A stretch of 64,000 bases of DNA from IMG/VR virus record IMGVR_UViG_2882649382_000014; one strand, 5' to 3'. Origin of the DNA: an uncultured virus (IMG/VR IMGVR_UViG_2882649382_000014). Lineage: Duplodnaviria > Heunggongvirae > Uroviricota > Caudoviricetes. Below, piece by piece: positions 13,827 through 32,639 of this stretch (position 1 is its first letter; each line of letters begins with the position of its first letter). Below the pieces are notes generated by a model. The model did not search any database, had not been told where the DNA came from, and saw nothing but the letters and a program-made list of their open reading frames with translations. The translations under genes and the position numbers were made by a program.

Positions 13827-16800
13827 CTAAAACCTTCCCAATGTATTAGAGTATGCTTTTGTCATTCCTTTGGCTACGGATTCGTCAATAGCGCTCTGGA
13901 TCATGGTGGATCTTTTAAAGGTATCAACAAATGAGTGTTCATCTACAATTCCACTTCCATCAAGGTGGATTGAAATGCCGCCAACGTTTACATTTTGGGA
14001 GTTGGTGAATGAATTGGTTATTTCTGGCGTCTGTGCCAGTTTTGTGGCATTTTTCATGATATGGCTGGCAGCAGGTGTGATTTCCAGGAATTTACGGAAC
14101 TGCTTTGTCTGTTCAGATGTAAGGACGCTTTCGCCTCTCTGTAATGTGGCGATGCCATCGTCCCCGTTTTGGATGGCGGCTTCATTCAAAACAGAGGCAA
14201 TCCCTCCATTTGCAAAGCCAGCATTTTTCAGCGCATCGCGGATTTTCTTCGCTTCTTTTGAGGTAGGTTTTTTCCCAGAGACTTTTACGCCAAGTATTTT
14301 TGCAAGTTCTTTCATATCAGCCCATGAGGTATAAACCTTGCCGTATTTTTCTGCAAGGTATTGGTTTAATTCGTTTCCATATTCCCCAAAGGTATATTTA
14401 TTGATAAAAGTTGTGGACTGGTTTTTCAGTGACTTACATTTGCTCAGGCTTCCTTTGATTTGGAGGTTTAGTGATTTCAAATAGGCGCCGCTTAGGTCTG
14501 CGTTCTTATCTATTTTGGAAGCATTCGTTCTGTCAGGGGTGTGCCCATTGATATTTTCTGTCAACAGAGGGTTTTTGTCAACGTAATGTGGGCTGCGCTC
14601 AGAACGGTTCATGGAATTTTTTACAGACTCAATGGTAAGTTCAGGCTGGGCAGGTGATTTTACCTGGCCTAGATTGCTGCCATATGCATCGGTAGTAATC
14701 TGATATTGTTTTCCGTTGTAATCTGTATAAGTGCTTGTATAAGTGCCGTCTCCATTCTCTTTTGTGCGAAAGGAGTCAGCATTCCCATAGCCGGTTTTTT
14801 CCAGGGTATCTGCAATGATATAGCCGTTTTCGTCAATTGTCTTGACAACTGCCTCTATCAGGCTGTCCGTATTTTGCAGTGCGTTTTCAAAAAAGTTTTC
14901 CATGTCTTCTGACAGGTTGTCAAGAAGGTCTTCCTGGTCAGAAATCCATTTATCATATTCCGTATCTTTTAGGTCCTGCTGTGCTTCCTCAAGGTTTACC
15001 TTTAGTTTCTGCAGCTTTGCACGGGCTTCCTCGCTGTTATCCCCTGTTAATGCGGCAATCTGCTTCTGGATGTTTGCGATTGATTTTGTCTGGCTTGCAA
15101 TTTTACGCTGGTAATCATATAAGTCTTTTTCCGTTTGCAGCGCCTTTTTGCGTTTTTCAATCAATTCATTCAGTGCGTCAAGCTGTACGTTAAATGCTTC
15201 CTCTACAAGGCTGACAATGGATTCTTTCAGTTCTTCGTCAGCAAGGGCTGCATCGCGGATGGTCTGAATCCATTCCTGCATTTTTTGGTTCTGTGTCTGG
15301 AAATCATCCCCGGTTGTGCCTGCTGCAATCTGCTTTTGGTATTCAGCCATTGCGTTTTGGGCATTTTCAATGGTCTTTTTATTGTTTTCCATCTTATCAA
15401 TCCATAGGGAAATGGAGGTCAGGCCTTCGTCCGTCAGCCCGCCGGCGTCTTTGCTGGTCAGCTTTTTGTGGGAGAGTATGTCAGTCAGGAAGTCAATTTG
15501 GCTGTTTGCGGATGCAATCTGGTCTGCAATGATCGAATATTTCTTTAAATCCAAAGCATTTAACGCCTTCTGCCACTCAATTGTCTGCTGTGTGCAGGAT
15601 TCTATCTGCTGGTCAATGGACAGTAAATCATTCTGCAGGCCGTACCATTCCGGGGAGTAGTATTCAAAACGTTTTCCTGCCTTTTCCAGTTCTGCACGCT
15701 TTTTAAGTAATTTCTTCATCGTATCGGAAGAGGATTCCATCATGTCAGCATACATTTCTTTTGCAGCGTTTTTTCCGGCTGCTTCCAGCGTTGCAATCTG
15801 TGCCTGGATTGTTGCTATTTTTGCATCATTTATGCCAGTTTTGTTGTCATATTCCGCCTGGATGTTGTCATACATTGTTTTGTATGATTCCGCGATTTTT
15901 GCCTGTTCTTCTGCCTGGAGCCGTTTTTGCTCCGCAGTGTTTCCTTCCAGTTCTGCAATTTTAATAAGATGCTCATATTGCTTTTTTAGGCAGTTGAGGC
16001 TTTCGGCTTCATATTTGTTTTTGGTTTTAGCATCTATAGCGTTTGCTTCATACTGCTGGTAAAGATTGTACCTTGCTTCGGCAGAATCTGCACGGTTTTG
16101 GTGGCGTTCCACATTTTTTTCCCGGATTTTAGAAATTCTTTCTTCCTTTGCAAGCTTTTTGTCTCGTAAAGCATCTGTTACAAAATCAACACTGTTGTTG
16201 TAATCCACAAGCTTCTGGTATACATATTTATCAATGTTTGATACCTTTTTTAAAAGGGATTTGGGGATTTCTTTCTTCTGTTTAATTTTATTAATAATTT
16301 TCTTTTTGACAGATTCCGGGATCTTTTTTGATTTATTTACAGACGTTTTTGCTTTTTTGCCGGCCTGATTTCGGAATCTTTTTGCCCGTGTATAATAATT
16401 GTTATATGCTTTGTCTTCAGCAGGGAATGTGTTTATTTCTTTTCGGAGGATTTTGTTCTTTTGGTCTGTGGTGGTGGCATTGGCGTACCGTGCTTCCAGA
16501 TAGGTGCGTTTCCTTTCATTGCTATCTAGCTGCATTTCTAATTTCTGTTTTGAAAGTTCCCTGATGGAAGCAGACAATTCAAGGGTTGCTTTTCTGGCAT
16601 CCTGTGCTTTATCATAGTATGCCTCATATGTCTGTATGATGTTGGCAATGCTTGATTTGTAAGATCTGATATTATATGAGCCGTTTTGGAGCATTTTAAG
16701 AGAAATGCCATTTTTAGTCAGAACTTTTTTGTTACTGTTATAATAACTGCCTGCTTTTTTTTGGTATCTTGCAGATGCTTTTTCTTGTGCTGTAAGAAGT

Positions 16801-19439
16801 TTTGAGGTTTCCTTTATCTGGTTGTTGAGGTTTCTATTCTTCTTTGGTGTTGAAAACAGGTTTTCAAATTTTGTTTTCAACATATCCACTTTATCTTGCA
16901 GGAAGGTAAGTTTTTGTGACAGCCAGTCAATTTCCTGTTTGGATTCCTTGACGGGCTCTGGTTTTATAGAAGAATTTTGGTTATTTGATTCGGGAATTTT
17001 TGGGGATTTTGGTGAAAAGACAGGTTTTTTAGATCTGGCAGCTTTTTCTCTGGCAGTTTCTATCTCCTTTTTGGATTTGCGTTGTGCTTCTGCAAGTTCT
17101 GAAGTGGAGACGCTGCTTGGATTTTCCATTAATTTACGATATGCAGAAAGGGCAGTTGTAGTTCCGCCGATTGCATCAACTAAAGCTATCAGGTTATCTA
17201 TGTCTGATAATGAGTCTAGAGAAACGCCATTTGCTATTTGCTTTTCAAGAGCCAGTCTGTATAATGCATTTGTGGTTTCATCGGACCATTTTTGTTCTTC
17301 TGCAAGTGCTGTGATTTCATTGTAAGTTGCATTTGCAAGGTCAAGTGTTGTTGCCTTTGCCCACTGTTTTTCTGCACTTAATTCTGCTTCCTTCTGTATT
17401 AGCATGCTTTTTACAATAATATCTGCATTTTCAATTCCCATTGCCTGCAATTCTGCAATATAGCATTCTTTATTAGAGCTAGTCAGATTGGCCAGGAAGT
17501 TATTGCTGTTTATATATGCATTTGCCAGTTGGCTTGCTGCTTCCCGACAGTCAGCCATAGTAGATGAACCGTTCCCCAATACTTCATAAAAGTTTTCATA
17601 TGCTTCTGTACAGGATTTAATATCGTCTGGCATAGAACTGAGTATATCAGAGCCAATGCCGTTTTTTTCGGTGCTTTTATCACTGAGGTTTTCCTGCTTC
17701 TGGCTTAATATATCGGAAATGGAAGAGATGCCTGTCTTCATGGAAGCCAACTGTTCAACAGAGGAAACTTCTTTTAGCTGGTTGATATGCTTAACGGTTT
17801 CTTTTGCAGAAAGGCCAACCTGGTTTAGCCATGACTTAGCGCCAGTAGTTTTATTAAATGATTCTTCTGTAAGTTTTCCTTGTTTTGCCAGGGCTAAGAG
17901 TTCATCTTTAAGATTTTGTAAGGCGGCATCCTCTGGATTGTCCAGGGCGTCCCAGGCTTTGTCAAACCCAATAGCGATGTCATTGTTAACGCCCTTTTTC
18001 CAGGCTTCGGCATACGCCTGCCCATATGCTTCTGCTGTTTGAAAATCATTGCGGTCCGGGAGCGGGAAATTAAAGTCAAAATCATAATATTCGCCTAAAT
18101 CTTCTTTTTGTATATTTTTTAGTACAGAGTCTGCTTCCTGCATTGTCAGCCCTTTTTCCATTAATTTATTATGGATAATAGAACGCTGCTGTTCTTCTGT
18201 TAACCCCTGGAATCTTTCTTTAGTCTGTTCAAGGGTGTAGGAATAGAGCAGGTAGGCATCCTGGGCTTTTAAGGCAGAGTTGTATTCTTTTTGTTGTTCA
18301 GATGTTAAAGTGATTCCTGCATCTGTAAGCGATTTGTATGCGTCTATAAGTTTGCCAACAATTTTTGCATCCTTGCTGACCTTTTTATTAAAGTTTTCTG
18401 CATTAAATCTATCTTCAGTTAAATCGCCATGGCTGGCCATATCCTGGTAGGCAGTAAGATTATCTTGCAGCCTGTCTATGGCATTGCCTTTTTTTGCTAC
18501 AGGATGTGTGTTTCCTTCATCGTCGTAACGGACATAAAAATACTGTGTTTTATTATCAACTTTTGTTTTTGCTTTTCGCAGCAGTTCTTCTGCATCATCT
18601 GCCCGCTCTTTTTCCCTTAATGCAATTTTCCGCTCCAATTCATCATTCGTTTTTTGCAGGGTTTTCAGTTCATTTTCCTCTGCTATGGAGATTGTGCCAT
18701 TATTGGCTAACTCTTGCAGTTCACTGATCCTGCTTTTTGTGGAATCTAACTGTGCCTGAAGGCTGTTGACTTCCTGTGTTGTCTGGTTAAACTTTTCCTG
18801 GGCGTCATCTAATGCCTCGTTTTCCTTTTCTTCTTTATGGATTAGGTAATCAATTCCAGAGATTAAGGCACTGATTGCTTCTCCAATTGCTATCATTGCA
18901 ATGGAGTTGAGCGTTGCAGAGAGTACCTTGGTTGCAACTGTGGCAGCTTTTGCACCAAGTGTCTGTTGTTTCAGGGCGTTGTTGTGGGCAATTGCTGATT
19001 CCCGGGCAGCTTTGTTGGCGTTGATAAGGTCTTCTACGCTGGCTTTTTGGAGGTCAGTCTTTTGGATAAAGTCAACAATGTATCTTTTGGCACCGTTGTA
19101 AGTTTTAAAATAGTTATTCCAACTAGTAGTGCCTGCATTTACTTGCGCCTGAATATCCTGCAATTCTTGTAATAGATTTTCAGCGTCAGGTTTTTCTAAT
19201 TTTTCAAGGTAGGAGTCTATATTGCTATTTGTAACAATTTCACCTGATGGTGTAGTTTTCCAGGACATATTATTTTGGGGTATAAGTGCTGTTGCAAATG
19301 CATTTTTAAACTTTAAAAGCAAGTTTTCTCCTTCGTTAAAGGATTCTTTTATTTGTGTCCACCATTCTGCAAAACTGCGTTTACTAAACCCAATTTTATG
19401 ATTAAGGTCATCCAAGTCACTGTTAAATGTTTTGATAAT
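13827..19439 (-). CDS. Tape measure protein, exon 2 (1870 aa)
   Basis: Long helical/coiled-coil ORF with C-terminal GFANGG...LQRGESVLT motif; upstream of Dit. Confidence 0.85.
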   Translation of the reverse strand: MIKTFNSDLDDLNHKIGFSKRSFAEWWTQIKESFNEGENLLLKFKNAFATALIPQNNMSWKTTPSGEIVTNSNIDSYLEKLEKPDAENLLQELQDIQAQVNAGTTSWNNYFKTYNGAKRYIVDFIQKTDLQKASVEDLINANKAARESAIAHNNALKQQTLGAKAATVATKVLSATLNSIAMIAIGEAISALISGIDYLIHKEEKENEALDDAQEKFNQTTQEVNSLQAQLDSTKSRISELQELANNGTISIAEENELKTLQKTNDELERKIALREKERADDAEELLRKAKTKVDNKTQYFYVRYDDEGNTHPVAKKGNAIDRLQDNLTAYQDMASHGDLTEDRFNAENFNKKVSKDAKIVGKLIDAYKSLTDAGITLTSEQQKEYNSALKAQDAYLLYSYTLEQTKERFQGLTEEQQRSIIHNKLMEKGLTMQEADSVLKNIQKEDLGEYYDFDFNFPLPDRNDFQTAEAYGQAYAEAWKKGVNNDIAIGFDKAWDALDNPEDAALQNLKDELLALAKQGKLTEESFNKTTGAKSWLNQVGLSAKETVKHINQLKEVSSVEQLASMKTGISSISDILSQKQENLSDKSTEKNGIGSDILSSMPDDIKSCTEAYENFYEVLGNGSSTMADCREAASQLANAYINSNNFLANLTSSNKECYIAELQAMGIENADIIVKSMLIQKEAELSAEKQWAKATTLDLANATYNEITALAEEQKWSDETTNALYRLALEKQIANGVSLDSLSDIDNLIALVDAIGGTTTALSAYRKLMENPSSVSTSELAEAQRKSKKEIETAREKAARSKKPVFSPKSPKIPESNNQNSSIKPEPVKESKQEIDWLSQKLTFLQDKVDMLKTKFENLFSTPKKNRNLNNQIKETSKLLTAQEKASARYQKKAGSYYNSNKKVLTKNGISLKMLQNGSYNIRSYKSSIANIIQTYEAYYDKAQDARKATLELSASIRELSKQKLEMQLDSNERKRTYLEARYANATTTDQKNKILRKEINTFPAEDKAYNNYYTRAKRFRNQAGKKAKTSVNKSKKIPESVKKKIINKIKQKKEIPKSLLKKVSNIDKYVYQKLVDYNNSVDFVTDALRDKKLAKEERISKIREKNVERHQNRADSAEARYNLYQQYEANAIDAKTKNKYEAESLNCLKKQYEHLIKIAELEGNTAEQKRLQAEEQAKIAESYKTMYDNIQAEYDNKTGINDAKIATIQAQIATLEAAGKNAAKEMYADMMESSSDTMKKLLKKRAELEKAGKRFEYYSPEWYGLQNDLLSIDQQIESCTQQTIEWQKALNALDLKKYSIIADQIASANSQIDFLTDILSHKKLTSKDAGGLTDEGLTSISLWIDKMENNKKTIENAQNAMAEYQKQIAAGTTGDDFQTQNQKMQEWIQTIRDAALADEELKESIVSLVEEAFNVQLDALNELIEKRKKALQTEKDLYDYQRKIASQTKSIANIQKQIAALTGDNSEEARAKLQKLKVNLEEAQQDLKDTEYDKWISDQEDLLDNLSEDMENFFENALQNTDSLIEAVVKTIDENGYIIADTLEKTGYGNADSFRTKENGDGTYTSTYTDYNGKQYQITTDAYGSNLGQVKSPAQPELTIESVKNSMNRSERSPHYVDKNPLLTENINGHTPDRTNASKIDKNADLSGAYLKSLNLQIKGSLSKCKSLKNQSTTFINKYTFGEYGNELNQYLAEKYGKVYTSWADMKELAKILGVKVSGKKPTSKEAKKIRDALKNAGFANGGIASVLNEAAIQNGDDGIATLQRGESVLTSEQTKQFRKFLEITPAASHIMKNATKLAQTPEITNSFTNSQNVNVGGISIHLDGSGIVDEHSFVDTFKRSTMIQSAIDESVAKGMTKAYSNTLGRF

Positions 19440-19510
19440 CATACTATTATTTATAGAAGTTGTGGAGTACTATAGAAGGCGGAGACTATTAAGATGAATT
19501 AGGGTATTAG

Positions 19511-19539
19511 TTGAAAAGTATGGTTATCTTTGGTATTAT
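19511..19539 (+). promoter_or_regulatory. Sigma70-type promoter of the intron passenger gene
   Basis: TTGAAA-17 bp-TATTAT with extended TG; AGGAGG RBS before ATG 19571. Confidence 0.7.
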
Positions 19540-19570
19540 TAGATTATATAATAAGAGGAGGAGATGTATT

Positions 19571-20035
19571 ATGGCGTTATATTATTGTGATAAATGTGGT
19601 CATTTATGGCAATATCATGGTGGAAAACAAGATGATATATGTGATATTTGTAAAAATCGGCTTAGGCCAGTGCCCGACGAATATTTTGAAAACCCTGATT
19701 TTAAAGTATTGCTTAGTAAAGATATGGAGCAAAAGCTAATTCGTGACCTTGTTCTGACATCCCCAAACTTTGATCAGTATTATTTTGATAATAAAGACGA
19801 TATACAACTTCAGCAATGGGAGGAATATAGGGCAATGATGGAACATGGCAGGGCGGTTCTGGAAGGCCGTGATATTGGCAACCAATATGGCGTGTCCTGT
19901 CCATATTGCCACGCGACTAATGTAAAGAGGATTTCGGTTGCTTCCAAAGCATTGCATACAGCAGTTTTTGGGATTTTCAGCATGGGCAGGAACAGTAAGC
20001 AGTGGCATTGTAACCATTGCAATAGTGATTTTTAA
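19571..20035 (+). CDS. Cys-rich double zinc-ribbon protein, antisense inside the intron
   Basis: 154 aa; four CxxC pairs (CDKC, CDIC, CPYC, CNHC); short hydrophobic segment ALHTAVFGIF. Confidence 0.8.
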   Translation: MALYYCDKCGHLWQYHGGKQDDICDICKNRLRPVPDEYFENPDFKVLLSKDMEQKLIRDLVLTSPNFDQYYFDNKDDIQLQQWEEYRAMMEHGRAVLEGRDIGNQYGVSCPYCHATNVKRISVASKALHTAVFGIFSMGRNSKQWHCNHCNSDF

Positions 20036-20115
20036 GATGCTGCCTGTTTTACATACCGATAAAATGTTCTCCGTTTTTTCCACGATGGCAAGGAGAAGTC
20101 CATACATTACCCTGT

Positions 20116-20185
20116 TTCTTCTTAGGTGCGGAGTCTTACCTGACGAGGTGTTTTAAGTCTGGAAAGGCTTCGCACCTTTTTTATT
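20116..20185 (+). terminator. ~70-bp hairpin/terminator, direct repeat copy 1
   Basis: AGGTGCG...CGCACCT followed by a T-run; similar to 20372-20446. Confidence 0.65.
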
Positions 20186-20323
20186 CTCGCGTATGCAACG
20201 AGCCAAACGCAAGCTTGCTTGCGCTTGGCGACTGCGCGTGGGTCAAATACCCCGCCCCTCTGAGTCGAACAAGCTAAAGAGAAGCTAGGTCATGCTCCGT
20301 TGCTCTGCGGCGGGGTATTTGAC
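20180..20323. repeat. Palindromic MITE/REP-like repeat, copy B
   Basis: Perfect 15-bp inverted ends GTCAAATACCCCGCC(20242-56)/GGCGGGGTATTTGAC(20309-23); similar to 9-190. Confidence 0.75.
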
Positions 20324-20371
20324 TTTATAGGAAATTGCGCTGATTTGAGAATGAAGAACGCTGGTTTTGCG

Positions 20372-20446
20372 TTCTTCTTAGGTGCGACAGTAGCCTTGCC
20401 TGGCGAGGTGTTTTCGAGCCTGGAAAGGCTTCGCACCTTTTTTATT
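20372..20446 (+). terminator. ~75-bp hairpin/terminator, direct repeat copy 2
   Basis: TTCTTCTTAGGTGCG...CTGGAAAGGCTTCGCACCTTTTTTATT shared with copy 1. Confidence 0.65.
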
Positions 20447-20957
20447 GCTATCAAGAAACAGGGGAGCAGTATCACTCTTTTGGTTTCTACCCAGTCACGG
20501 GCAAGTTTTCCTTCTTGGTTTGGACTGTCTTTTACAAGCCATTTCTGACTCAAAACCGTTTACAAAGTCTCTGGACACTTCCATATCTGGGTTACCAGAC
20601 TTAGGGTTTCCGCTGCTGATTGGTGGTTTAGCCTGAATCCAAAGAGGCGCGCCACTTAGGTTTCCCATATGGCCTGCCGTATATTTTCTTGCCATTGCTG
20701 GCATCCTTTCGGAGTGCATGTCACGCCCATCGTTTCCAATCACGTTGTAGCTATACGGCACTATATATTCACTATAATAAAGCTTCCCAGCACTGGGGGA
20801 TAGCAGCCCCAATTACGGTTTATTTTATAGAACACTGTGAGTTGACTAAGTTCACACATTCCTGCCTTTGAAACCCGGTCTGCCGGGTAACTTAGGTATG
20901 AAGGGCATATTCAAAACAAATAACAGTTTATGAAATCCGTACACTCATACGGCGTTT

Positions 20958-22457
20958 ACCAGTGTTCTTGAAGCTTGTATATAAACCAGCTTCTAATCCA
21001 AGTGTCCCTAATGGGGATAGGGCAGGGACAAGCTCTGAGGCATGCTGGATGATGTTGTCAATCAAAACAGAGCCTGTCTTGAGTGCATCGGAATGTATTA
21101 TGCTGTTGACAAACTCTGTCCAGCTATTGGACAGCCTATTGAGCGTCCCGGTTAAATTCTGGGCGGACTGCCCTGCCGTTTCTATTGCAGAGCTCTTTCC
21201 TCTGGAATATTCTGCAAGCATGTTTTCATACTCCTGCCAGCCAGCCAGGAGCGCCGCCAGCTGTTCCGGGTGGTTCTGCCCAATGTTTTCTGTAATCTCA
21301 TTTTTTAATGGAGTCTTTTCTTCCAGCGCATTATATGCAATGGCCAAATCCTTTAAGATTTCGACGGGGGTTCGGAGATTTTCTGCGCTGCCGGCTGTTT
21401 CTGCCATGGCAGCATTGGCTTTTTGCAGCGTGTTTGCTATTTTATCAGAGGAAATGTCCTGCAGGGCAGAGATAATGGACTGGATGCCTTCGCCAATGGC
21501 TTCCCCGTCTTGCCTTGTATTTTCTGCGATTGTCCCCGCCAAGGCGGACAGTTCGTTGATTTTAATGCCTGCATTGGAGGCTGTAGAACCAGCTTTTTCC
21601 ATGACGGAAGCCATTGTCTTCAGGTTTACATGGTATTTGCCGGCAAGTGCGATCTGTCCGTCAAGGACGTCAGACAGCTTTTTGGCATCCTCTTTATATT
21701 TGTAGGCAGCGTTTGCGGCCAGCAGGTAGTTTTGCGCTGTTTCCGGACTTAGGCGGCCTGCCGTCTGGGCTTTTAAGGACAATTCTCCGAGGGAGTTTCC
21801 CTTTTGCCCGTAAATGCCTTGATTATTAAATCCATGGATGGCTGACAGGTAATCGGAAGAAAGCATGCCGTATTTTGATGCAGCGCCATAAGAAGCGCTG
21901 CCTAAGCTTTTTGTTTCACTTTCCGTAAAATGGTTTGCTTCTGAAATCTTTGCAAGGGTTGAATTGTTTTTTTGGATTGTCTTTAAGCTTTTCTGGAAGC
22001 TTCCGGCTGTCATCCTAACCATTTGAAAGGCAGAACTTAACCTGTCAAAAAAGTTTTCCAGGCTGTCCAATTTTAAATTGAGATTCAGGGGCACAGGGGC
22101 GTCCTGGATAGCTTTTTTGGCATCTGCAATTAATTTCTGGATTTTCAGCTTTGTTTTCCCGCTGTTAAACCCTGTTTCAATTTCTTTGAAAGAAAGGCTG
22201 TTGAAAGCCTTATCTATCTCAGTTTTTAACTCCCTTTTGTCAATTTTTGCCTTGAGCTTTATCTGCGTAAGCTGGCTTTCAAGCTGTCTGGCGTACTGTT
22301 TTAGCTGCTGCCGGCTTTCACCCCTGGCAAGTATGGCGGTCAGGCGGATGGTATGGACTGCTTTTTCCAGTTCTTTGATGCTGGAATTAATTTGCTTTTT
22401 GCTGGATTGTTTGTTTAACAGCCCGGTTAATTTTAGAATAGGTTCGTTATTTTCCAA
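20958..22457 (-). CDS. Tape measure protein, exon 1 (500 aa; the unspliced ORF stops at 20928)
   Basis: TP901-like TMP core (ELSALAGTIAENTRQDGEAIGEGIQSI; LRTPVEILKDLA); GGAGG RBS, TTG start. Confidence 0.85.
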
Positions 22458-23138: not shown

Positions 23139-23890
23139 ATGATATTACAAAACAGTACAAATGAAAATACTTTACCTGAAATAAATATACAATTTATCAA
23201 AGCCATCCGGGAATTGAAAATCAGCGCCCTGCTCAAACAGTCTAACATATGCAAAGCCAGCTGTTCCAGGAATGGGGATGGCGGGAAGAAGCGTACCGCG
23301 TTTGAAATCTTCCAGTTCCTCCTCATGCTGGTGTTCGAAGGTACAGACCTGTTCCGGTTTCCTGGTTCAAAAAAGCAGGAAACCGCGTGTGCGAAAAGTA
23401 CATATTACCGTTTCCTGTCCAACTGCCATTACAGCTGGAGACGGTTTGTGCTGTTGCTTTCTGGAAAGGCCGCCGCATATTTCAGCACGCTTACACACCC
23501 GGAAAGGGTTAAATGTTTTGTTCTGGATGATTCTGTCATTCCACGCGGAAAAAGTAAAAAGGCTGGGCTGCTTTCTTTCGTCCATGGTCATGTCATCCAT
23601 AAAACCGTCAAGGGCTTCAGCCTCCTGCTGTCCGGCTGGATGGACGGTTGCAGTTTCTTGCCTGTTTCATTCAACATGCTGGCGTCCGCCAACGGGGAGA
23701 AGCGTATAAACCATGCAAACGAATCTATTGACAGGCGGACCAATGGCGCAAAAGCGCGGGAAGATGCCATAATGAAGAAGCCGGGGGCTGCAGCTGCTCT
23801 GATCCACAGTGCGCTTGAAGCGGGCATCGAAGCATCCTGTGTACTGATGGATACGTGGTTCACCAGCGAACCTTTCATATCCAGAGCCTT
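23139..23890 (+). pseudogene. Truncated IS4/IS701-like DDE transposase
   Basis: FVLDDSVI and VLMDTWF DDE motifs; the C-terminal half is replaced by integrase sequence. Confidence 0.75.
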
Positions 23891-24790
23891 TATTATGAAG
23901 AAACGGCTGTTTCGGCTTCTATTGCAAGGCTGGTAAAAACGGTGATGAATACGTCCATGCAGTATGCTGTGAATAAAAAAATCATTTCCATAAACCCAAC
24001 GATTGATGTGGCTCTGCCAAAGCAGGTAGAGAATAAAGCCTATCACACCCGGAACATTGATATACAAAAGACGTTGAATATGGAGCAGGTTTTAACGCTC
24101 ATTGAAGCGAGCAGGGAAACGCCAATCCATATGCAGGTATTATTTGCAGTGCTGTTAGGATTGAGGCGGTGTGAAATCAATGGGGTAAAATATTCGGATA
24201 TAGATTATATCAACCGGACATTGAAAGTGCAGCGGCAGTTAGGCAAGAAGCCAAACACGACTGCCGGGGACTTCCCGGCTAAGACGTTTACAAAACAGGA
24301 AATTGGGTTGAAAACGCCGTCCAGCTGCCGAACCATCCCCATACCGGATTATGTATTTGAAGCCATTCTGGAAGAAAGAAAAGTGTATGAGAAGAACCGC
24401 AGAAGGCGGTCAGGAACATTTCAGGATTTGGATTATATCTGCTGTTCCACCTATGGGCGTCCGAGAAGCAAGGATTTTCACTGGAGGCATTATAAAAAGC
24501 TGCTGGAGGACAATGGACTGCCCGATATAAGATTGCATGATTTGAGAAGTACCTTCTGCACTATCTTATTAAGGAACAATTTCAATCCTAAAGCGGTATC
24601 ACAGCTAATGGGACATGCGGAAGAAATCATTACCATAGATGTTTACGGAGATACCGCCGAAATCATTGAGGACTGCTTAGACGATCTCCAGCCGTTTATT
24701 GATGAAGTAATCCCGAAGGAAGAAAGTGAAGGCGGTACAGATTTTTCAGAAGACAATTATATAGAACAAATCAGTGAATTTCTTGCATGA
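23891..24790 (+). pseudogene. Tyrosine recombinase/integrase, N-terminally truncated
   Basis: GLRRCEI, HDLR, LMGH and DVY catalytic motifs; no native start, abuts the transposase fragment. Confidence 0.8.
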
Positions 24791-26542: not shown

Positions 26543-26724
26543 CCGATAGCCCCGCAATGGCTACCGGTTAGATACAAAGTGCAAAACACATTTAACTTTA
26601 ATAAAATTATACCATTTTTGCGCTTTGTAGTCAAGGGAGAAAAGCGGCTAAAAGTGCCGTTTCGGGCTTGTTCAAACTATTAACTTTAGGATCCCTACAA
26701 AGCGAAAAAGGGGGCGTAATTTTA

Positions 26725-27474
26725 TTGGCATATTTTAAGACAACAGTAAAAGCAGGAGCAACGATTGAGGTAACAAAAAGTTTCACAAAGAGAGTAGGGG
26801 TAAAAAATAAAAGGGATAAGGAGAAACCCGCTACAGAGGAAATGGAAAAGGTAAACGAGAAAAACGCAGAAAGAACATTGAGGCTAAAAATCAATGCTAA
26901 TTTTGGAGTAGATGATCTCTTTACCACATTGACATACAGAAAAGACGAGCGACCGACACCAGAGCAGGCAAAGAAGAATGTTAAAAAACTCATAGACAGC
27001 TTGCGGAAAGAGTTTAAGAAGATCGGGGAGGAATTAAAGTACATCAACGTAACAGAGTACAAAAACAAGGCGATACACCACCACTTAATCATTAACCATA
27101 TTGAGGGGCAGGACGTAGCAAGAATGGTTAGGCGACTATGGAAGTTTGGCAGACCGGATTTTAAGTTTCTGGACGACACCGGGCAATATAAAGATCTTGC
27201 GGCATATCTGATAAAAGAAACGTCAAAGACTTACAAGGAAAATGACGGAGGACACAAACAAAGATATAGTTGCAGCCGTAATTTGATTATACCAACGCCA
27301 AAGACAGAGATTGTAAAAAGGGCTACTAAATGGCTACCAGATCCAAAGCCAATAAAAGGCTACTACATAGATCAAGACACAGTATATAACGGCGTGGATC
27401 CATTCACAGGTAGAGAGTACCAACGCTACACAATGGTTAAGTTAGATTACGGAGGAGGCGGCAAGCATGGTTAG
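26725..27474 (+). CDS. Rolling-circle-type (HUH) replication initiator-like protein
   Basis: FTTLTY, IHHHLII and LAAYLIKE resemble RCR motifs 1-3; start uncertain (ORF opens at 26668). Confidence 0.7.
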   Translation: MAYFKTTVKAGATIEVTKSFTKRVGVKNKRDKEKPATEEMEKVNEKNAERTLRLKINANFGVDDLFTTLTYRKDERPTPEQAKKNVKKLIDSLRKEFKKIGEELKYINVTEYKNKAIHHHLIINHIEGQDVARMVRRLWKFGRPDFKFLDDTGQYKDLAAYLIKETSKTYKENDGGHKQRYSCSRNLIIPTPKTEIVKRATKWLPDPKPIKGYYIDQDTVYNGVDPFTGREYQRYTMVKLDYGGGGKHG

Positions 27475-27530
27475 TATATCAAAATACCCGGAACGCCTAA
27501 TAAATATTAGGTGGAGAGGGGGGTAAGGCG

Positions 27531-27950
27531 GTGGAATATTTGAAAGTGGATATTTATATACACGCAAAACACAAAGGAAATCCGAGAGGCGCAGGCGAGG
27601 CAACAGCAATATTGGAATTTATCAGCCGGAAGAATGAGGCACACATAAGGAAAGCGACGGCAGCAGTTGAGAATGACACAAAAAACGCATTAACCCTAAA
27701 AGTGATTGTTACGGCTTTGAAAATGCTTATCAAGCCTTGCGAGGTAGTGTTACATACGGATAACGAGTATATAAAATCATGCGTTGCGCTTGGGTGGTTG
27801 GAAACATGGCGGCAGCAGGATTGGAGGAAAGCAAACGGAAAGCAACCGGCAAATATGGAATTGTGGAAAGGTTTTTATATTTCCATGCAGATACACAAAA
27901 TTACATTCATGCCATACGAGGATAGGCAAGAATTTAACAACGAAAATTAG
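27531..27950 (+). CDS. RNase HI-like protein, probably degenerate
   Basis: KGNP, PCEVVLHTDNEY and WRKANGKQPANMELW; the first catalytic Asp and Glu are not evident. Confidence 0.7.
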   Translation: MEYLKVDIYIHAKHKGNPRGAGEATAILEFISRKNEAHIRKATAAVENDTKNALTLKVIVTALKMLIKPCEVVLHTDNEYIKSCVALGWLETWRQQDWRKANGKQPANMELWKGFYISMQIHKITFMPYEDRQEFNNEN

Positions 27951-27961
27951 GAGGTAGAGAA

Positions 27962-28603
27962 ATGGAGATTACAACAAAAGTAATGCAGCAGACAACATGG
28001 CAGCAGATTTTAGAGGACGTAAAAGCAGGCGAGGCGGTAAAGTACGCCGGGACAGAAACAGAAATCACATTAAAGGACGGCACAACAGCAGTTTTGGCAG
28101 TGGCAGCAGTAAACCATTACAAAGACAATGAGTTAGTGTTTGTGTTCAGAGATTATTTGAGCGACAAGAAACCAATGAATGAGGACGGAGGCAACGCCGG
28201 AGGTTGGAAAAAATCAGATCTTAGAAAATGGCTTAATAAAGAGTTTATTAAACTGCTGCCAGATGATTTACAAGAAGTGATCCACAAGAAAAAGACAGTG
28301 CAGGTAATTAACGGAGAGTGTTATAAATGCAAAGATTATCTGTTTTTACCGTCAGAAATGGAAATGTTTGGAGAGTGCAAATATTCAGAGGAGCAGGAGG
28401 GAGAAAAGCAGTTCCCTTATTACGCAGACAAGCATAACCGCAGCCGCACGATTGGTAAAAGTGGTTGTTGGGAATTTGGGTGGCTTTCGTCGCCGTCCGC
28501 GTCGTACACTACCAGCTTTTGCGGTGTCAACGGCGACGGCAGCGCCAGCTACACCGACGCGCGCGGCAGCTTTGGCGTAGCCCCGGCTTTCGTAATCCGT
28601 TAA
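27962..28603 (+). CDS. Remote DGR target protein (C-type-lectin-fold, DUF6273-like)
   Basis: GGWKKSDLRKWLN, LFLPSEMEMFG, WLSSP..GVAPAF; 3' end matches the TR. Confidence 0.9.
   Translation: MEITTKVMQQTTWQQILEDVKAGEAVKYAGTETEITLKDGTTAVLAVAAVNHYKDNELVFVFRDYLSDKKPMNEDGGNAGGWKKSDLRKWLNKEFIKLLPDDLQEVIHKKKTVQVINGECYKCKDYLFLPSEMEMFGECKYSEEQEGEKQFPYYADKHNRSRTIGKSGCWEFGWLSSPSASYTTSFCGVNGDGSASYTDARGSFGVAPAFVIR
28479..28593 (+). repeat. DGR variable region VR2
   Basis: 115 nt colinear with TR 59753-59867; 16 mismatches, all at TR adenines. Confidence 0.95.
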
Positions 28604-28614
28604 TCTTGCAATCC

Positions 28615-28633
28615 GCGCCGCCGTGTGCGGCGC
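28615..28633 (+). promoter_or_regulatory. GC-rich hairpin downstream of VR2 (candidate retrohoming cruciform)
   Basis: GCGCCGC-CGTGT-GCGGCGC. Confidence 0.7.
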
Positions 28634-28657
28634 ATACATAGAAAGGACTAGAACAAT

Positions 28658-29041
28658 ATGGAGAATTTGAACACGCAGGGAAGATATAAAAGAGGACAAA
28701 TATATTTTGTCAAATCAACGCATAAAGAGGTTGGCACGGAACAATGGGCAGATAGACCGGCGGTAATTGTCAGCAATGACGAAAATAACAAATGCAGTAC
28801 GGCAGTAGAAGTTTGCTATATGACAACAAGACCAAAAACAGATTTACCGACGCATTTTATTACAAATCAAGCGTTGCGACCGTCTACCGTGATTTGCGAA
28901 CAGGTAACAACGGTTTATAACGAGCGTATAGGGGAATGGATCGGAGAGTTAAGCCCGGAGGAAATGCAGCGGCTTGACAAATGTTTAGAAATTTCTTTAG
29001 GGCTTGAAAAGACAAAGCCAAAAGAACCCCCCGGAAATTAA
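28658..29041 (+). CDS. PemK/MazF-like protein; a C-terminal coiled coil (to 29132) is out of frame at a C6 tract
   Basis: KRGQIYFV, GTEQWADRPAVIVSND, TVICEQVTTV. Confidence 0.8.
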   Translation: MENLNTQGRYKRGQIYFVKSTHKEVGTEQWADRPAVIVSNDENNKCSTAVEVCYMTTRPKTDLPTHFITNQALRPSTVICEQVTTVYNERIGEWIGELSPEEMQRLDKCLEISLGLEKTKPKEPPGN

Positions 29042-29143
29042 AAGCCGGGCAGAATTTGAAAAGGTGCAGCGGGAAAGAGATTTATACAAAGATCTTTATG
29101 AACGCCTCAACAAAGAATTACTTAACGGATAGGAGGCGGCAGA

Positions 29144-29401
29144 ATGGATAAAGCAACATGGAGGGTAAAAGAAAGTAAAAATACCTATCGCGCTACTTAT
29201 TCGGGAGATTTGCAGGAGGCTTTAGACAAAGCAAAGAAAGACTTAGAGAGATACCAAAACAATAAGGATATAGCACACTGGTATTGGATAAGAGCAAAGG
29301 CAGAGGCAGCAATAAAAGCAAATGAAAGAGCGATAAATAGAGCGAACATATTTATTCAGCTTGCAGAAAAGGAATTAAAGGCAGGTGGAAAAAGTGATTA
29401 A
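29144..29401 (+). CDS. Hypothetical phage protein
   Basis: 85 aa, AGGAGG RBS. Confidence 0.6.
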   Translation: MDKATWRVKESKNTYRATYSGDLQEALDKAKKDLERYQNNKDIAHWYWIRAKAEAAIKANERAINRANIFIQLAEKELKAGGKSD

Positions 29402-30380
29402 AATTTTAGAGTTATTCGGCGGGATCGGATCGCCGCGCTGTGCTTTGCGGAATATTGGAATACCAGTAAAAGCTATCGACTATGTAGAAATAGATGAAAA
29501 TGCAGTTAGATCATACAATGCTATGTTTCAAAATGAATTGAAATACAAAACACAGTCAGTAGTACAGTGGAATCTAAAGCCGGACATATTGATACATGGT
29601 AGCCCATGCCAAGATATGAGCATAGCCGGACATCAAGGGAAAGCAACAGCGGATAAAGGAAGAATAAACCGAGGGAAAGGCGCAGACGAGGGAACCGGAA
29701 CGCGATCAAGTCTGATGTGGGAAACGATAAACATAATTAAACAAATGGGCGAATGGCGTCCAAGATATGTTATTTGGGAAAATGTAAAGAATGTTACATC
29801 AAAACACATGATACACAATTTCAATCGCTATTTATCGGAAATGCAAAAATTGGGTTACAAGAACAGTTTCCAGACATTAGACGCTAGAGAATTTGGTTTA
29901 CCGCAGGCTAGGGAAAGAGTATTCACAATATCAGTATTGAACGGAGAACCGTTTAACTTTGATGATTTAATAAAAACGCCTATGCGAAACCTAAAAGAGT
30001 TTTTGGAGGATAATAACGACGTTCCAGAAGTCTATAACGTGACACAACCAAGCGTATTAAGTGCCATTGGCAAAAAAGGAATAAGGAGAGCGACAGTTAT
30101 AACGGATTTTGCATATACAATCACAACACGGCAAGACAGGACACCGGCGCAAGTCATTGATAGAGGAAACGGAAAGTACAGATATTTGACAGAGCGCGAA
30201 TGTTGGAGGTTGCAAGGCTACACCGACGCAGATTTCGAGGCAGCGGCAGCAGTACAAGAAAAGTCCGGGCGTTACACAATGGCACTTTACAAACAAGCAG
30301 GAAATAGCATAGCAGTACCGATTTTTGAAAGCATTTTCAAAAAGATTATTCTAGGACAGACGGAAGAAAGGAGTTTGTAG
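29385..30380 (+). CDS. DNA (cytosine-5) methyltransferase
   Basis: LELFGGIG, GSPCQD, WENVKN, QARERVF, YKQAGNS. Confidence 0.95.
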   Translation: MEKVIKILELFGGIGSPRCALRNIGIPVKAIDYVEIDENAVRSYNAMFQNELKYKTQSVVQWNLKPDILIHGSPCQDMSIAGHQGKATADKGRINRGKGADEGTGTRSSLMWETINIIKQMGEWRPRYVIWENVKNVTSKHMIHNFNRYLSEMQKLGYKNSFQTLDAREFGLPQARERVFTISVLNGEPFNFDDLIKTPMRNLKEFLEDNNDVPEVYNVTQPSVLSAIGKKGIRRATVITDFAYTITTRQDRTPAQVIDRGNGKYRYLTERECWRLQGYTDADFEAAAAVQEKSGRYTMALYKQAGNSIAVPIFESIFKKIILGQTEERSL

Positions 30381-30383
30381 TAT

Positions 30384-30879
30384 ATGGATAAGGTTTTAAT
30401 GAGTACCGGTAAAGACGATTGGGGAACACCACAAGCGATATACGACACACTCAATAAGGAGTTTGGTTTTACATTGGACGCTTGCGCAGATGAAAGCAAC
30501 TATAAACATGAGAATTATTACACGGCAGCAGTTGACGGCTTAAAAATGAATTGGGGGGGGGCAAATCGTGTTTTGCAATCCACCATATAGCAAGAAAACA
30601 AAGAAAAATCCGGGGCAGGAGGCTTGGATCAAGAAATGTTTTGAGGAAAGCAGCGAGCATGGCGCAACTGTTGTTATGTTAATACCGTCCAGAACAGACA
30701 CAAAGGCTTTTCATAATTTCATTTTAGGAAAAGCAAAAGAAATACGGTTTGTAGAGGGGCGGTTAAAGTTTGAGATTGCCCGGCAGCAGTGCAAAGAGGC
30801 GGCACCATTCCCAAGCATGGTAGTAATTTATGATGGTACGCCGGGAGGCAGCGGGACAACGAAAGTAAAAAGATATTAA
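30384..30879 (+). pseudogene. Phage DNA N6-adenine methyltransferase split at a G9 tract
   Basis: DDWGTPQ and FTLDACA in frame 1; VFCNPPY, LIPSRTDT and GRLKF in frame 2; G9 at 30553-30561, G8 would fuse the frames. Confidence 0.85.
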
Positions 30880-30892
30880 GGAGGAAAAGAAA

Positions 30893-31252
30893 ATGCAGAT
30901 ATGCGAAGTAGAGGGGTGTAAATGTGTAGGACAGAGGCACCATATAGTATTTAGATCACAGGGCGGCTTAGATATTGATTTGAATTATAAATATCTATGC
31001 GCGGAACATCACAACATGGGAAACCGCAGCCCGCACATGAGCCGGGAAATAGATGTAGGTTATAAAATCGAATTGCAAAGAAAGTTTTACAAACTTTTCC
31101 GTGAGGCAAGATACACCATAGGAGAGATTGCAGAATTATTGGGCTGCCAAAAGAAAACATTAGAGAAACGATTTAAGGCGGTGCCAAACCGTGCCGGAAC
31201 GTATGAAAAAGAGGACATTATAAGGGCACTTATGGGAGGGAAACTATATTGA
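30893..31252 (+). CDS. HNH-like protein with C-terminal HTH-like segment
   Basis: HHIVFRSQGG...LCAEHH...H. Confidence 0.65.
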   Translation: MQICEVEGCKCVGQRHHIVFRSQGGLDIDLNYKYLCAEHHNMGNRSPHMSREIDVGYKIELQRKFYKLFREARYTIGEIAELLGCQKKTLEKRFKAVPNRAGTYEKEDIIRALMGGKLY

Positions 31253-31554
31253 GTTTAACAGCATTAGTAGCAGAATTGGAGAGGGAGGTAAGGGAGTGGC
31301 GACAGCAGGAACAAAATACATTACAGATGATAGCTGCTATTACGTCGCCAGAGTTTGCAGAGCAGGCGGCAGACGTTTTAGACAGCAAGAAACATTCATA
31401 CAGCTTTGAGGCGTATTTGGTTTTGCTTGGACGGCTACAAGAGTTAATAAGTGCAGGTATGCCAAACTGTTTAGCACTGGACGCGGTACAGACGTGCGAA
31501 ACAGCAGAAACGATTATAAACGCATGGAGATTAGCAAACGCAGGCGACAAGTAA
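31249..31554 (+). CDS. Hypothetical phage protein
   Basis: 101 aa, coupled to the upstream stop. Confidence 0.55.
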   Translation: MSLTALVAELEREVREWRQQEQNTLQMIAAITSPEFAEQAADVLDSKKHSYSFEAYLVLLGRLQELISAGMPNCLALDAVQTCETAETIINAWRLANAGDK

Positions 31555-31598
31555 CGGCGGGAAACAAATTATTTTACGAACAGAAAGGAGCAAACGCA

Positions 31599-32378
31599 AT
31601 GAGAGTTATTTCAATTATCAGCCTCAAAGGAGGCGTGGCGAAAACGACAACAAGCGTAAACATGGCTTACATATTATGCAAGCAGGGATTTAGAGTTTTG
31701 CTTATTGACAATGACAAGCAGGGGAACGCCTCAAAGACATTCGGGCTATACAATCCAGAGGACGAAAACACCGTAGCCCGGATTATGCTTGAAAGAGGCT
31801 TAGACGTCCGGGAGATCATAAACAAAACGCCATACAGTGACAGCGAGGCAGGCACATTGGATATTATAACAGCAAATATGGAACTGTTAGAGGCTAACAT
31901 GAGGACGATTGTAGACACTGGACGGCAGCAGCAGACGAGATTTAAGAAAGCATTAACAGCAGTGAGCGATCAATATGATTTCTGCATAATTGACAATGCA
32001 CCAGATATAAACATGAGCATTATTAACGCCCTTGTGGTGTCAGATGATCTAATCATTCCAATTATGATAGATCAGTACAGCTTTGACGGCTTGGAAATTC
32101 TCATAGAACAGATAGAACAGACAAAAGAGGATTTTAACCCGGCATTAACTTTTAGAGGCTGCCTTGTAACACAGTACCGAAAAGCCGACGTGCAGGAGCA
32201 GGGAACGGAAGTATTAGACAGTGGCTACCCGATTTTTGAAAGCAGGATCAGACGGACGGAAAACAAAGTAAATGAAAGTACGTTTGCAGGAAAGCCGGTT
32301 GTTGAGTATTCGGTAAGATGTGGAGCGTCGCAGGATTATAAAAAATTTGTGCGTGAATATTTGGAGGCGATCAAATGA
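31599..32378 (+). CDS. parA: ParA/Soj-family ATPase
   Basis: KGGVAKTT deviant Walker A, DNDKQGN, IIDNAP. Confidence 0.9.
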   Translation: MRVISIISLKGGVAKTTTSVNMAYILCKQGFRVLLIDNDKQGNASKTFGLYNPEDENTVARIMLERGLDVREIINKTPYSDSEAGTLDIITANMELLEANMRTIVDTGRQQQTRFKKALTAVSDQYDFCIIDNAPDINMSIINALVVSDDLIIPIMIDQYSFDGLEILIEQIEQTKEDFNPALTFRGCLVTQYRKADVQEQGTEVLDSGYPIFESRIRRTENKVNESTFAGKPVVEYSVRCGASQDYKKFVREYLEAIK

Positions 32379-32590
32379 GATCAAAGAAAATCAAGGTAAA
32401 AGCCTATTGCCCATACGAAATTGGCGACAAGGTACAGTTTGAAAAGGGCGGCAATGTTAAGACAATGGAAATTACGGACGTAATCACAGAAACAAGCGCG
32501 AAAAACGGTACAAGCAAGTTTCGGCTAGAGTTAGACGGTTGGTATATGTTAGATACAAATTTGCATGAAATCAAAATACAGAAACCGTAA
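32375..32590 (+). CDS. Hypothetical phage protein
   Basis: 71 aa, ATGA overlap. Confidence 0.6.
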   Translation: MRSKKIKVKAYCPYEIGDKVQFEKGGNVKTMEITDVITETSAKNGTSKFRLELDGWYMLDTNLHEIKIQKP

Positions 32591-32639
32591 AAAATAGGCG
32601 AAAAGTGCCCAACAAGGGCACAAGAAAGGAAGTGACAAA

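Follow-up and report, generated by a model that had tools for sequence, protein, structure and literature searches.

The stretch of DNA analysed here (the window) comprises 64,000 nucleotides (nt) from an uncultured virus of the Caudoviricetes (IMG/VR record IMGVR_UViG_2882649382_000014). On its minus strand a tape-measure protein (TMP) gene is split by what is predicted to be a group I-type intron, and inside this element, on the other strand, lies an open reading frame (ORF) for a small zinc-ribbon protein, P0001. We compared the locus with related loci, genomes and contigs, which are cited below by working handles (L and G numbers). The features of the locus are listed here in order of position; a slash marks the splice junction.

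13827-19439, minus strand: tape-measure exon 2, 1870 codons plus stop
20957 to 19440, minus strand: predicted group I-type intron, 1518 nt, splitting the TMP gene
19452-19475, minus strand: 3'-terminal intron hairpin with a CUCCACAA loop, found by folding, just before the 3' splice site
19511-19563, plus strand: predicted ORF promoter (TTGAAA, 17 nt, TGgTATTAT) and ribosome-binding site (RBS) GAGGAGGAG
19571-20035, plus strand: zinc-ribbon ORF (P0001), 154 amino acids (aa), ATG at 19571 and stop at 20033-20035
20060-20125, minus strand: distal arm of the peripheral stem, in which AAGAAACAGG pairs with CCUGUUUCUU (20448-20463), then a hairpin UUCUCC...GGAGAA
20115-20370, no strand: secondary insertion at the tip of the peripheral stem, a mosaic of host interspersed repeats
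20124-20185, plus strand: terminator-like hairpin and U-run, -29.5 kcal/mol and z -3.2 by RNA folding
20446-20957, minus strand: conserved ribozyme block, P1 to P9 with a P3/P7 pseudoknot, defined by identity, nhmmer and covariation
20958-22457, minus strand: tape-measure exon 1, 500 codons, matching PF10145 PhageMin_Tail at 1.8e-14
TMP junction without the intron (predicted): ...AAGAACACTGGT/ATTATCAAAACA...
Ligated exon product at 20958/19439 (predicted): ...AACACUGGU/AUUAUCAAA...

The exon-1 ORF as listed (20928-22457) enters the intron by nine codons and stops at 20928. The listed exon-2 ORF (13827-19442, 1871 codons) lies about 1.5 kb apart from this PhageMin_Tail ORF. Uninterrupted TMPs of 2054-2486 aa exist (P0122, P0128, P0130 and P0142), and these are colinear across the sequence ...NKD[YV]G/[IL]T[KQ].., the counterpart of which in the window is ...FKNTG/IIKTFNS. 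From this colinearity we set the limits of the intron and obtained a ligated frame of 500 + 1870 residues, with the 5' splice site after GGU (20960-20958) and a G (19440) as the last intron base before exon 2. Of 25 aligned loci, 22 have this G immediately before AU(A/U)UUCAAAAC; it is missing from L011, and L009 and L013 were not covered by the alignment. Exon 2 has an in-frame ATG (19442-19440) that is not preceded by a Shine-Dalgarno sequence in the window. Since 12 of 22 relatives have a codon other than ATG ending in the splice-site G, exon 2 has no start codon of its own. Of 18 public RNA runs listed, none contained half of the sequence words; in the four RNA-library runs examined, the exons were barely covered and no contig joined 20958 to 19439.

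The Rfam group I model (Intron_gpI, RF00028) matched 20566-20792 on the minus strand, a region corresponding to P4-P6 and J6-7, at 21.5 bits (E 0.022). This match was below the gathering score of 50, no match reached the threshold in the loci of 11 relatives, and none was found at E<=0.1 in seven loci. Because the Rfam match was weak, the structure was examined by comparison of copies. The 480 nt adjoining exon 1 were 74-84% identical to seven loci found via the protein, nhmmer located the ribozyme block in 11 of 46 loci, and 15 further ribozyme loci were obtained, 13 of them metagenome contigs found by a pattern scan and two of them viral contigs. The resulting covariation alignment contained 21 ribozyme copies in 20 distinct rows and was scored for P1, the P1 extension, P3, P4, P6a, the P7 pseudoknot, P8 and the P9 hairpins. 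Over the distinct rows, 96.5% of the paired cells could pair, as compared with 31-45% when partners were slid by 1-3 columns, and 21 pairs had changed on both sides versus 3-6 in the slid controls. The observed covariation score was reached by none of 500 shuffles.

P1 (GGU/GCC) had a U.G pair at the cleavage site in all 20 distinct rows. In the adjoining P1 extension, an 8-bp helix formed by the last exon codons (AGAACAYY) with the internal guide, three pairs covaried in step with exon codon changes that were either synonymous or conservative. P3 was 100% paired with two compensated pairs, as was P7 (compensated in 10 and 3 sequences), and P4 and P8 were invariant or showed one-sided changes. 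A candidate P10 between UGUUUUGA and exon-2 UCAAAACA fits the variants seen, with no compensating changes found. Seven loci (L004, L007, L010, L026, L031, L032 and L034) carry a second ribozyme lineage at the same site. In this lineage P1 is GUCGGU/GCCGAC, for which L031 shows a compensated version (GUGGGU/GCCCAC). L007 and L026 have a C.A pair instead of U.G at the 5' splice site (GUCGGC with ACCGAC, alignment columns 43-48 and 87-92), a double change that would preserve wobble geometry. The junction colinearity, the U.G pair in P1, the terminal G and the covariation in P1, P3 and P7 together identify the element in the TMP gene as, in all likelihood, a group I-type intron, and the proposal of a first-pass annotation of the window that the ORF is intron cargo was borne out on the same grounds.

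The conserved RNA of this intron consists of a 5' block (20957 to about 20060, excluding the secondary insertion) and the last ~130 nt. Within the 5' block, an inverted repeat (20110-20125 with 20448-20463) forms the peripheral stem, and the stem arm and its hairpin were kept in relatives, including L053, in which the zinc-ribbon gene is absent. The last ~130 nt contain the ORF promoter on the other strand, followed by a CUCCACA-loop hairpin and the G that ends the intron. Relatives have between one and three hairpins of this type just before the 3' splice site. We considered whether these hairpins might be operators for the protein and rejected this idea because L053 retains one without the zinc-ribbon gene. 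There was also no enrichment of the hairpin hexamer in the window (30 matches versus 22.5 +/- 4.7).

The zinc-ribbon ORF is situated between the ribozyme block and the 3' end of the intron; it is encoded antisense to the intron, and some 130 nt separate it from the 3' splice site. A promoter scan confirmed the TTGAAA-17-TATTAT promoter that had been noted previously: the boxes are at 19511-19516 and 19534-19539, 10 of 12 positions agree with the consensus, and a TG extension lies two bases 5' of the -10 box. Eight promoter-like sites were detected around the ORF, as compared with 3.7 +/- 1.8 in shuffled sequences. The strong RBS, also noted previously, is present at 19555-19563, 7-9 nt 5' of the ATG. 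The promoter was conserved, as an extended -10 element (TGnTAnnAT) was found 35-86 nt 5' of the start codon in 26 of 30 homologues of the ORF; in the shuffle control the mean was 3.9 and the maximum 9. The extended -10 box was followed by an RBS in all homologues but one (L011). These motifs indicate that the ORF probably has a promoter of the host sigma-A/sigma-70 type with a conserved extended -10 element.

The first-pass annotation described the ORF as a self-contained expression unit ending in a terminator. In the window there is indeed a suitable hairpin (20124-20177), which begins 89 nt 3' of the ORF and consists of a stem closed by 14 bp followed by UUUUUUAUU; a simple terminator scan of the region did not list it. 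A search for direct repeats identified a second copy of the hairpin at 20380-20446. However, the hairpin belongs to a host repeat and is absent from this position in the aligned relatives. The extra DNA at the tip of the peripheral stem is made up of two repeat families that are dispersed in the host genome and together have at least 55 matches in the nearest genome (G001). One is a ~70-nt hairpin with a T-run, whose two copies here flank an insertion of 256 nt; the other is an element of ~150 nt (20176-20326) containing a perfect inverted repeat of 15 nt. The tip measures 322 nt in the window versus about 20 nt in relatives, and an RNA-library contig of a relative joins 20114 to 20371 and so does not contain the 256 nt. 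Since the relatives have no hairpin at this position, the terminator is specific to this copy: the terminators were gained by host-repeat insertion and are peculiar to the window, and the family has no terminator there. Part of the repeat region (20178-20262) showed very high depth in one metatranscriptome, with loose ends leading into many contexts.

The four CxxC pairs of P0001 (C6/C9, C24/C27, C110/C113 and C147/C150) and the two zinc-ribbon-like ends recognised earlier withstood comparison, as all eight Cys residues are invariant in 31 aligned relatives. P111, I121, G134 and K143 are also invariant, His114 and His146 vary, and D68 and E98, located at helix ends, are the only near-invariant acidic residues. 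An AlphaFold2 model built with 31 sequences (mean pLDDT 85.0, pTM 0.60) contained a three-stranded ribbon at residues 1-35, helices at 50-61 and 69-97, and a second zinc site whose knuckles are split by a helix at 123-142. The short hydrophobic segment reported in the first-pass annotation is real (ALHTAVFGIFSMG, about 13 residues between the last two CxxC pairs) and was modelled as this last helix, where confidence was lowest (block pLDDT 58-65). We judged the stretch too short at ~13 residues to be a membrane-spanning helix. The sequence comparisons and the model predict a protein with two Cys4 sites, an N-terminal zinc ribbon and a C-terminal split zinc-ribbon module.

Searches with P0001 returned zinc ribbons only. 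Nine Pfam families were listed at E<=1, all of them sub-threshold, nearly all zinc-ribbon or zinc-finger families and none a nuclease family; PHROGs gave nothing below E 0.017. The Protein Data Bank (PDB) sequence-profile search found ribbons only, and the N-terminal ribbon weakly resembled ribbons of RNA polymerase subunits. A match to influenza PA endonuclease in that search (E 0.31) was dismissed as noise. The best Foldseek match of the model against the PDB had E 1.3, most matches being rubredoxin-like pieces, and VIA-align against 48,161 chains reached a best Z of 2.4 with no nuclease listed. In BFVD the matches were one uncharacterised 180-aa protein of a siphovirus (E 5e-7) and, at E 1.1, a protein with a LITAF domain, and the ESM Atlas contained only unnamed, mostly viral clusters. 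The earlier statement that P0001 has no LAGLIDADG, GIY-YIG or HNH motif thus stood, and no His-Cys box, PD-(D/E)xK or EDxHD motif was recognised by Pfam or the PDB profiles. A PD-(D/E)xK site read from PxFD68...E98-G-[RK] was rejected, as in the model both residues cap long helices and do not lie on a beta sheet. Longer relatives of 275-286 aa have one extra ribbon-plus-helix module and no enzyme domain. Nothing that is conserved in P0001 looks catalytic.

The C-terminal module is widespread among small proteins of phages and prophages. A profile of the last 55 residues matched 3657 cluster representatives at E<=1e-3, and with the limit set to E<=1e-10 there were still 2566. The 150 top-ranking matches were proteins of 58-286 aa, in which the module was located at the extreme C-terminus except for one protein with 15 further residues. 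The N-termini of 60 such proteins inspected were other ribbons, helical domains or transmembrane helices, and some module proteins are encoded outside TMP contexts or introns. The module follows the pattern CPxC-x3-N-x2-K-I-x(12-13)-FG-x(8-9)-K-x-[WYF]-[HK]-C-x2-C-x3-[FW]. It resembles the LITAF-like ribbon (zf-LITAF-like, PF10601) in having CPxC and (H/K)CxxC knuckles parted by a hydrophobic stretch, and the eL43 (L37ae) ribbon in its flanking motif CPxC..N..K(K/R)IS ... WxCxxC...F. Ten of 13 members matched PF10601 (best E 0.0087), all below the 23.8-bit cut-off, the window's own module scoring 12.5 bits against this gathering score; the match to eL43 (E 0.008, with a hydrophobic insert) was likewise sub-threshold, as were matches to InsA and IS1595 ribbons. 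A LITAF-type membrane hairpin needs a hydrophobic stretch longer than ~13 residues, the length found in the module, which differs from LITAF in this respect.

A word-indexed search identified 154 relatives of P0001 at E<=1e-3 among 160 candidates, mostly of 140-190 aa. The 120 relatives listed were 45-90% identical over nearly the full length, and almost all were unnamed. A match was present in 27 of 301 genomes of the family (about one genome per genus), and the nearest genome (G001) has one copy. The dN/dS ratio had a median of 0.32 (range 0.06-1.16; 58 pairs with dS of 0.05-1.5). Together, the homologues, the invariant Cys residues and this ratio show the ORF to be a real gene under purifying selection. 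Structure prediction and analysis of homologue neighbourhoods had been suggested in the first-pass annotation; the former revealed no recognisable nuclease fold and the latter showed that the TMP intron context is recurrent. Among 43 loci fetched with the protein, part of a TMP gene adjoins in 34. The start of exon 2 (a match to residues 1-2) lies less than 600 nt from the ORF start on the other strand in 21 of the 43, the end of exon 1 lies beyond the ORF stop in 17, and both exons were found in eight. The nine loci without a TMP match comprise two contigs of <=1.6 kb, one locus with the 3' part of the ribozyme and six with distant or partial matches. Thus in Lachnospiraceae prophages the ORF nearly always abuts the 3' splice site of this intron site.

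We also approached the linkage from the ribozyme. Nine of 15 ribozyme-seeded loci had the ORF or a paralogue downstream, and L047 has the ORF about 5 kb away. As for the remainder, L054 and L059 provided too little flank, L061 had a 1-kb flank without the ORF, and L049 and L053 contained a different ORF. Three viral contigs (G003, G004 and G005) have a TMP exon-2 homologue with a homologue of the ORF antisense beside it; the exon-1 homologue is 6.2 kb away in G004, weak in G005 and not found in G003. INPHARED yielded no match by blastn of 19300-21100 or by tblastn of the exon-2 start, and the nearest virus record (G002) has no match to the intron region, so that it must correspond to a different portion of the window.

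The ribozyme was better conserved than the gene that contains it. For 105 pairs of 15 copies, nucleotide identity of the ribozyme had a median of 84% and a minimum of 66%, compared with a median of 46% and a minimum of 28% for the last 300 residues of exon 1 in the same pairs. At the nucleotide level the exons were 74% identical in the ten codons closest to the splice site but 53-56% identical farther away. Some pairs were incongruent: L051 and L061 share 94% of the ribozyme and 47% of the exon-1 protein, and the exon 1 closest to that of the window (L047, 46.5%) is associated with the ribozyme most distant from it (72%). Because the ribozyme is more conserved than the exons and because such incongruent pairs exist, we conclude that the intron has moved between divergent tape-measure genes. 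L012 (5058-10078) has a duplicated module comprising the ORF plus some 300 codons from the beginning of exon 2, and also a third ORF fragment, which looks like a trace of recombination at the intron.

The region occupied by the ORF contains other cargo in some relatives. L014 has a second paralogue of the ORF within the intron. G170 (L077 4873-6005) has two tandem antisense paralogues between the ribozyme and exon 2, and G235 (L074 5985-8932) has five downstream of exon 1, within the intron. These five have only the C-terminal zinc module in common, and their N-termini contain repeated 'YIQTYCNCDE' helical units. In two loci a structured RNA is encoded between the ORF and the ribozyme block, on the same strand as the zinc-ribbon ORF and in the cargo region of the intron: the Rfam TwoAYGGAY RNA in L025 (5290-5452, plus strand, 91 bits) and the Rfam Clostridiales-1 RNA in L031 (7106-7262, plus strand, 119 bits). 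In G004 (L045/L047/L068) the ribozyme block directly follows ...FKNIG/ and exon 2 starts 6.2 kb further on. The ribozyme and exon 2 are separated there by eight unnamed ORFs (~5 kb) and then the zinc-ribbon gene; if spliced, this intron would be exceptionally long for the group I type.

The zinc-ribbon gene is absent from the introns of L049 (6654-8280) and L053 (4823-6449), which are near-identical and have the same ribozyme, site and 3' hairpin. They contain instead a sense ORF of 255 aa, the product of which has an N-terminal hydrophobic helix, a coiled coil and a sub-threshold match to DivIC. In L044 (864-2941), proteins encoded beyond the ORF include AbiQ/ToxN (Pfam 1e-34, PADLOC 5e-30), a PemK-like protein and a DUF4145 protein, and in L019 (3212-4948) the gene for a GmrSD_N protein adjoins the zinc-ribbon gene.

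From these data we propose that the ORF is a genuine, independently transcribed and moron-like passenger gene that a mobile group I-type intron carries in its cargo region, an explanation to which we give an even chance of being correct. The diverging tandem paralogues, the exchangeable cargo, the huge family of small proteins carrying the module and the lack of nuclease features all lead to this proposal. It also fits the context best, as the gene is antisense to the late operon, and the existence of introns without the zinc-ribbon gene at the same site favours its dispensability. According to the proposed mechanism, host RNA polymerase would read the ORF promoter independently of the late operon, such that the protein could be made in the lysogen. 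The intron would serve as a safe harbour because splicing would take the cargo out of the tape-measure mRNA, and the antisense orientation would shield the late transcript from the ORF's promoter and any terminator. The product would be a zinc protein without catalytic activity, able to bind nucleic acid, another protein or the membrane. It would serve the prophage or its host in phage-host or phage-phage conflict, for example in superinfection exclusion or host modulation, and would not cut DNA for homing.

A broader and more tentative version, which we consider possible though somewhat doubtful, is that the TMP intron of Lachnospiraceae phages is a safe-harbour slot for host-transcribed conflict genes and structured RNAs. 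The zinc-ribbon protein would then be the founding occupant of the slot. Its role would be exclusion or defence, with the protein made in the lysogen, or else it would be a novel type of homing or targeting factor that works without a nuclease.

Several observations weigh against a passenger gene with a role in conflict. The moron-like lysogeny gene envisaged in the first-pass annotation gained support from its own conserved promoter, the exchangeable cargo and the paralogue arrays but not from PADLOC-DB 2.0, in which no family matched P0001 at E<=1e-3. No named relative emerged from the relatives search or the ESM Atlas. For expression in the lysogen, assembled RNA-library contigs cover 19778-20114 in two of four runs, but these are strand-less and may stem from carried-over DNA. 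As L044 and L019 yielded no second exon, intron limits are unset for the defence genes in these loci. Moreover, the constancy of the ORF at the intron site (nine of 15 ribozyme-seeded loci plus L047) exceeds that of a casual passenger, and the ORF is the only one common to most copies of the moved intron, as a homing gene would be.

This last observation leads to the strongest rival, according to which the protein is a homing or mobility factor: a new type of endonuclease encoded by the intron, or else a subunit that recognises the site and brings in a nuclease. Cutting of intron-less TMP alleles would then spread the intron. Produced from a prophage, such a protein could also damage incoming intron-less relatives. 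The mobility of the intron (ribozyme median of 84% versus ~54% for exon nucleotides, and the incongruent pairs L051/L061 and window/L047) would be explained, the ORF accompanies two ribozyme lineages at the same site, and zinc ribbons often bind DNA, a property with which the sub-threshold InsA and IS1595 ribbon matches agree. However, none of the known homing-endonuclease signatures (LAGLIDADG, GIY-YIG, HNH, His-Cys box or PD-(D/E)xK) was matched, the only invariant residues other than Cys are the four named above, and the candidate histidines vary. The tandem arrays that share only the C-terminal module and the occurrence of this module outside introns also argue against homing, and the ORFs are intact nearly everywhere, without the decay expected of a homing cycle. 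We therefore regard homing as unlikely.

There are two further rival explanations. Transcription from the ORF promoter could itself act in cis, antisense across the ribozyme into exon 1, and damp TMP expression or splicing in the lysogen, with the protein being secondary. The promoter, present in 26 of 30 homologues, is always directed into the ribozyme, relatives have no terminator between the ORF and the ribozyme, and one assembled RNA-library contig, strand-less, reaches from the 3' end of the ORF into the ribozyme block. Purifying selection on the protein and its invariant Cys residues point the other way, as do the introns that exist without the zinc-ribbon gene, and in the window the two terminator-like hairpins would stop such transcription; we find this explanation quite improbable. 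Alternatively, the protein could be a maturase-like splicing cofactor that binds the intron RNA and brings the distant 3' splice site to the core. The distance of 1-6 kb between the two, the weak resemblance of the C-terminal module to the rRNA-binding eL43 ribbon (E 0.008) and that of the N-terminal ribbon to RNA polymerase subunits would accord with this function. Against it, L049 and L053 keep the ribozyme, the 3' hairpin and the site without the protein, the family is widespread outside introns, and the ribbon matches are far below any threshold. A cofactor role thus seems very improbable.

The passenger-gene proposal can be compared with several known arrangements. Some group I introns of phages carry an ORF in one of their peripheral loops, as is the case for T4 td, nrdB and nrdD/sunY and for SPO1 and Twort. 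As in these cases, an essential phage gene is split by the ribozyme, the ORF has signals of its own and is located 3' of the core but before the 3' splice site, as in the T4 nrdD/sunY intron, and the intron is more conserved than its exons and incongruent with them. Unlike them, the window ORF is antisense and has no homing-endonuclease signature, the cargo includes tandem arrays, non-coding RNAs and unrelated ORFs, and the intron matches the Rfam model weakly. Morons of temperate phages, a concept of Hendrix and colleagues, are autonomous promoter-gene-terminator units in late operons. The ORF resembles them in its host-type promoter, RBS and, in the window copy, terminator-like hairpin, in its location in the late tail gene region and in its independent orientation and predicted independent expression; it differs in being inside an intron rather than between genes and in having kept a single site in phages that have diverged widely. 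Nuclear rDNA group I introns contain antisense genes for His-Cys box homing endonucleases. The window ORF is likewise opposite to its host gene and encodes a Cys-rich zinc protein, but it has no His-Cys box or beta-beta-alpha-metal signature and its context is a bacterial prophage.

Bacterial and phage group I introns are usually viewed as a ribozyme plus a homing endonuclease. The cargo that stays constant here is a zinc protein that is encoded antisense, has its own promoter and appears not to be a nuclease, and the slot also takes arrays, ORFs and two orphan RNAs. If our proposal is correct, introns would be a further site at which temperate phages can carry accessory genes without disturbing an operon, and the locus would give a first genomic starting point for the study of an unnamed module that thousands of gut-phage protein clusters contain. 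Under the safe-harbour version, P0001 would be the first characterised member of a very large family of small phage proteins with a C-terminal split zinc ribbon. The locus also offers a test case of an intron without a recognisable endonuclease that has moved between TMPs with ~30-47% residue identity.

Introns in phage tail and tape-measure genes have already been reported, for example in PMC3706429. The TwoAYGGAY RNA is a multi-copy element of unknown function, and introns are unmentioned in the passages on it retrieved from bioRxiv 10.64898/2026.09.22.753630. The titles and abstract openings of the literature retrieved describe no antisense zinc-ribbon ORF in a tail or TMP intron. Within that material we found neither an antisense non-nuclease ORF as constant cargo nor an intron that collects arrays, non-coding RNAs and ORFs.

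Two minus-strand ORFs overlap the elements described above, one of 105 codons (20495-20812) in the ribozyme block and one of 123 codons (19736-20107) antisense to the zinc-ribbon ORF. Both were set aside as chance frames, the former having no family match in Pfam or PHROGs. A scan of ORFs upstream of the TMP gene identified none for head or packaging proteins. The window copy possibly lies in a defective prophage, and another element may truncate or interrupt it. In the stretches 23139-24790 and 26668-33998 of the window, a DDE_5 transposase fragment and a tyrosine integrase are encoded directly upstream of the TMP start, and Rep (ORF2/G2P), a C5 DNA methylase and ParA/ParB farther upstream.

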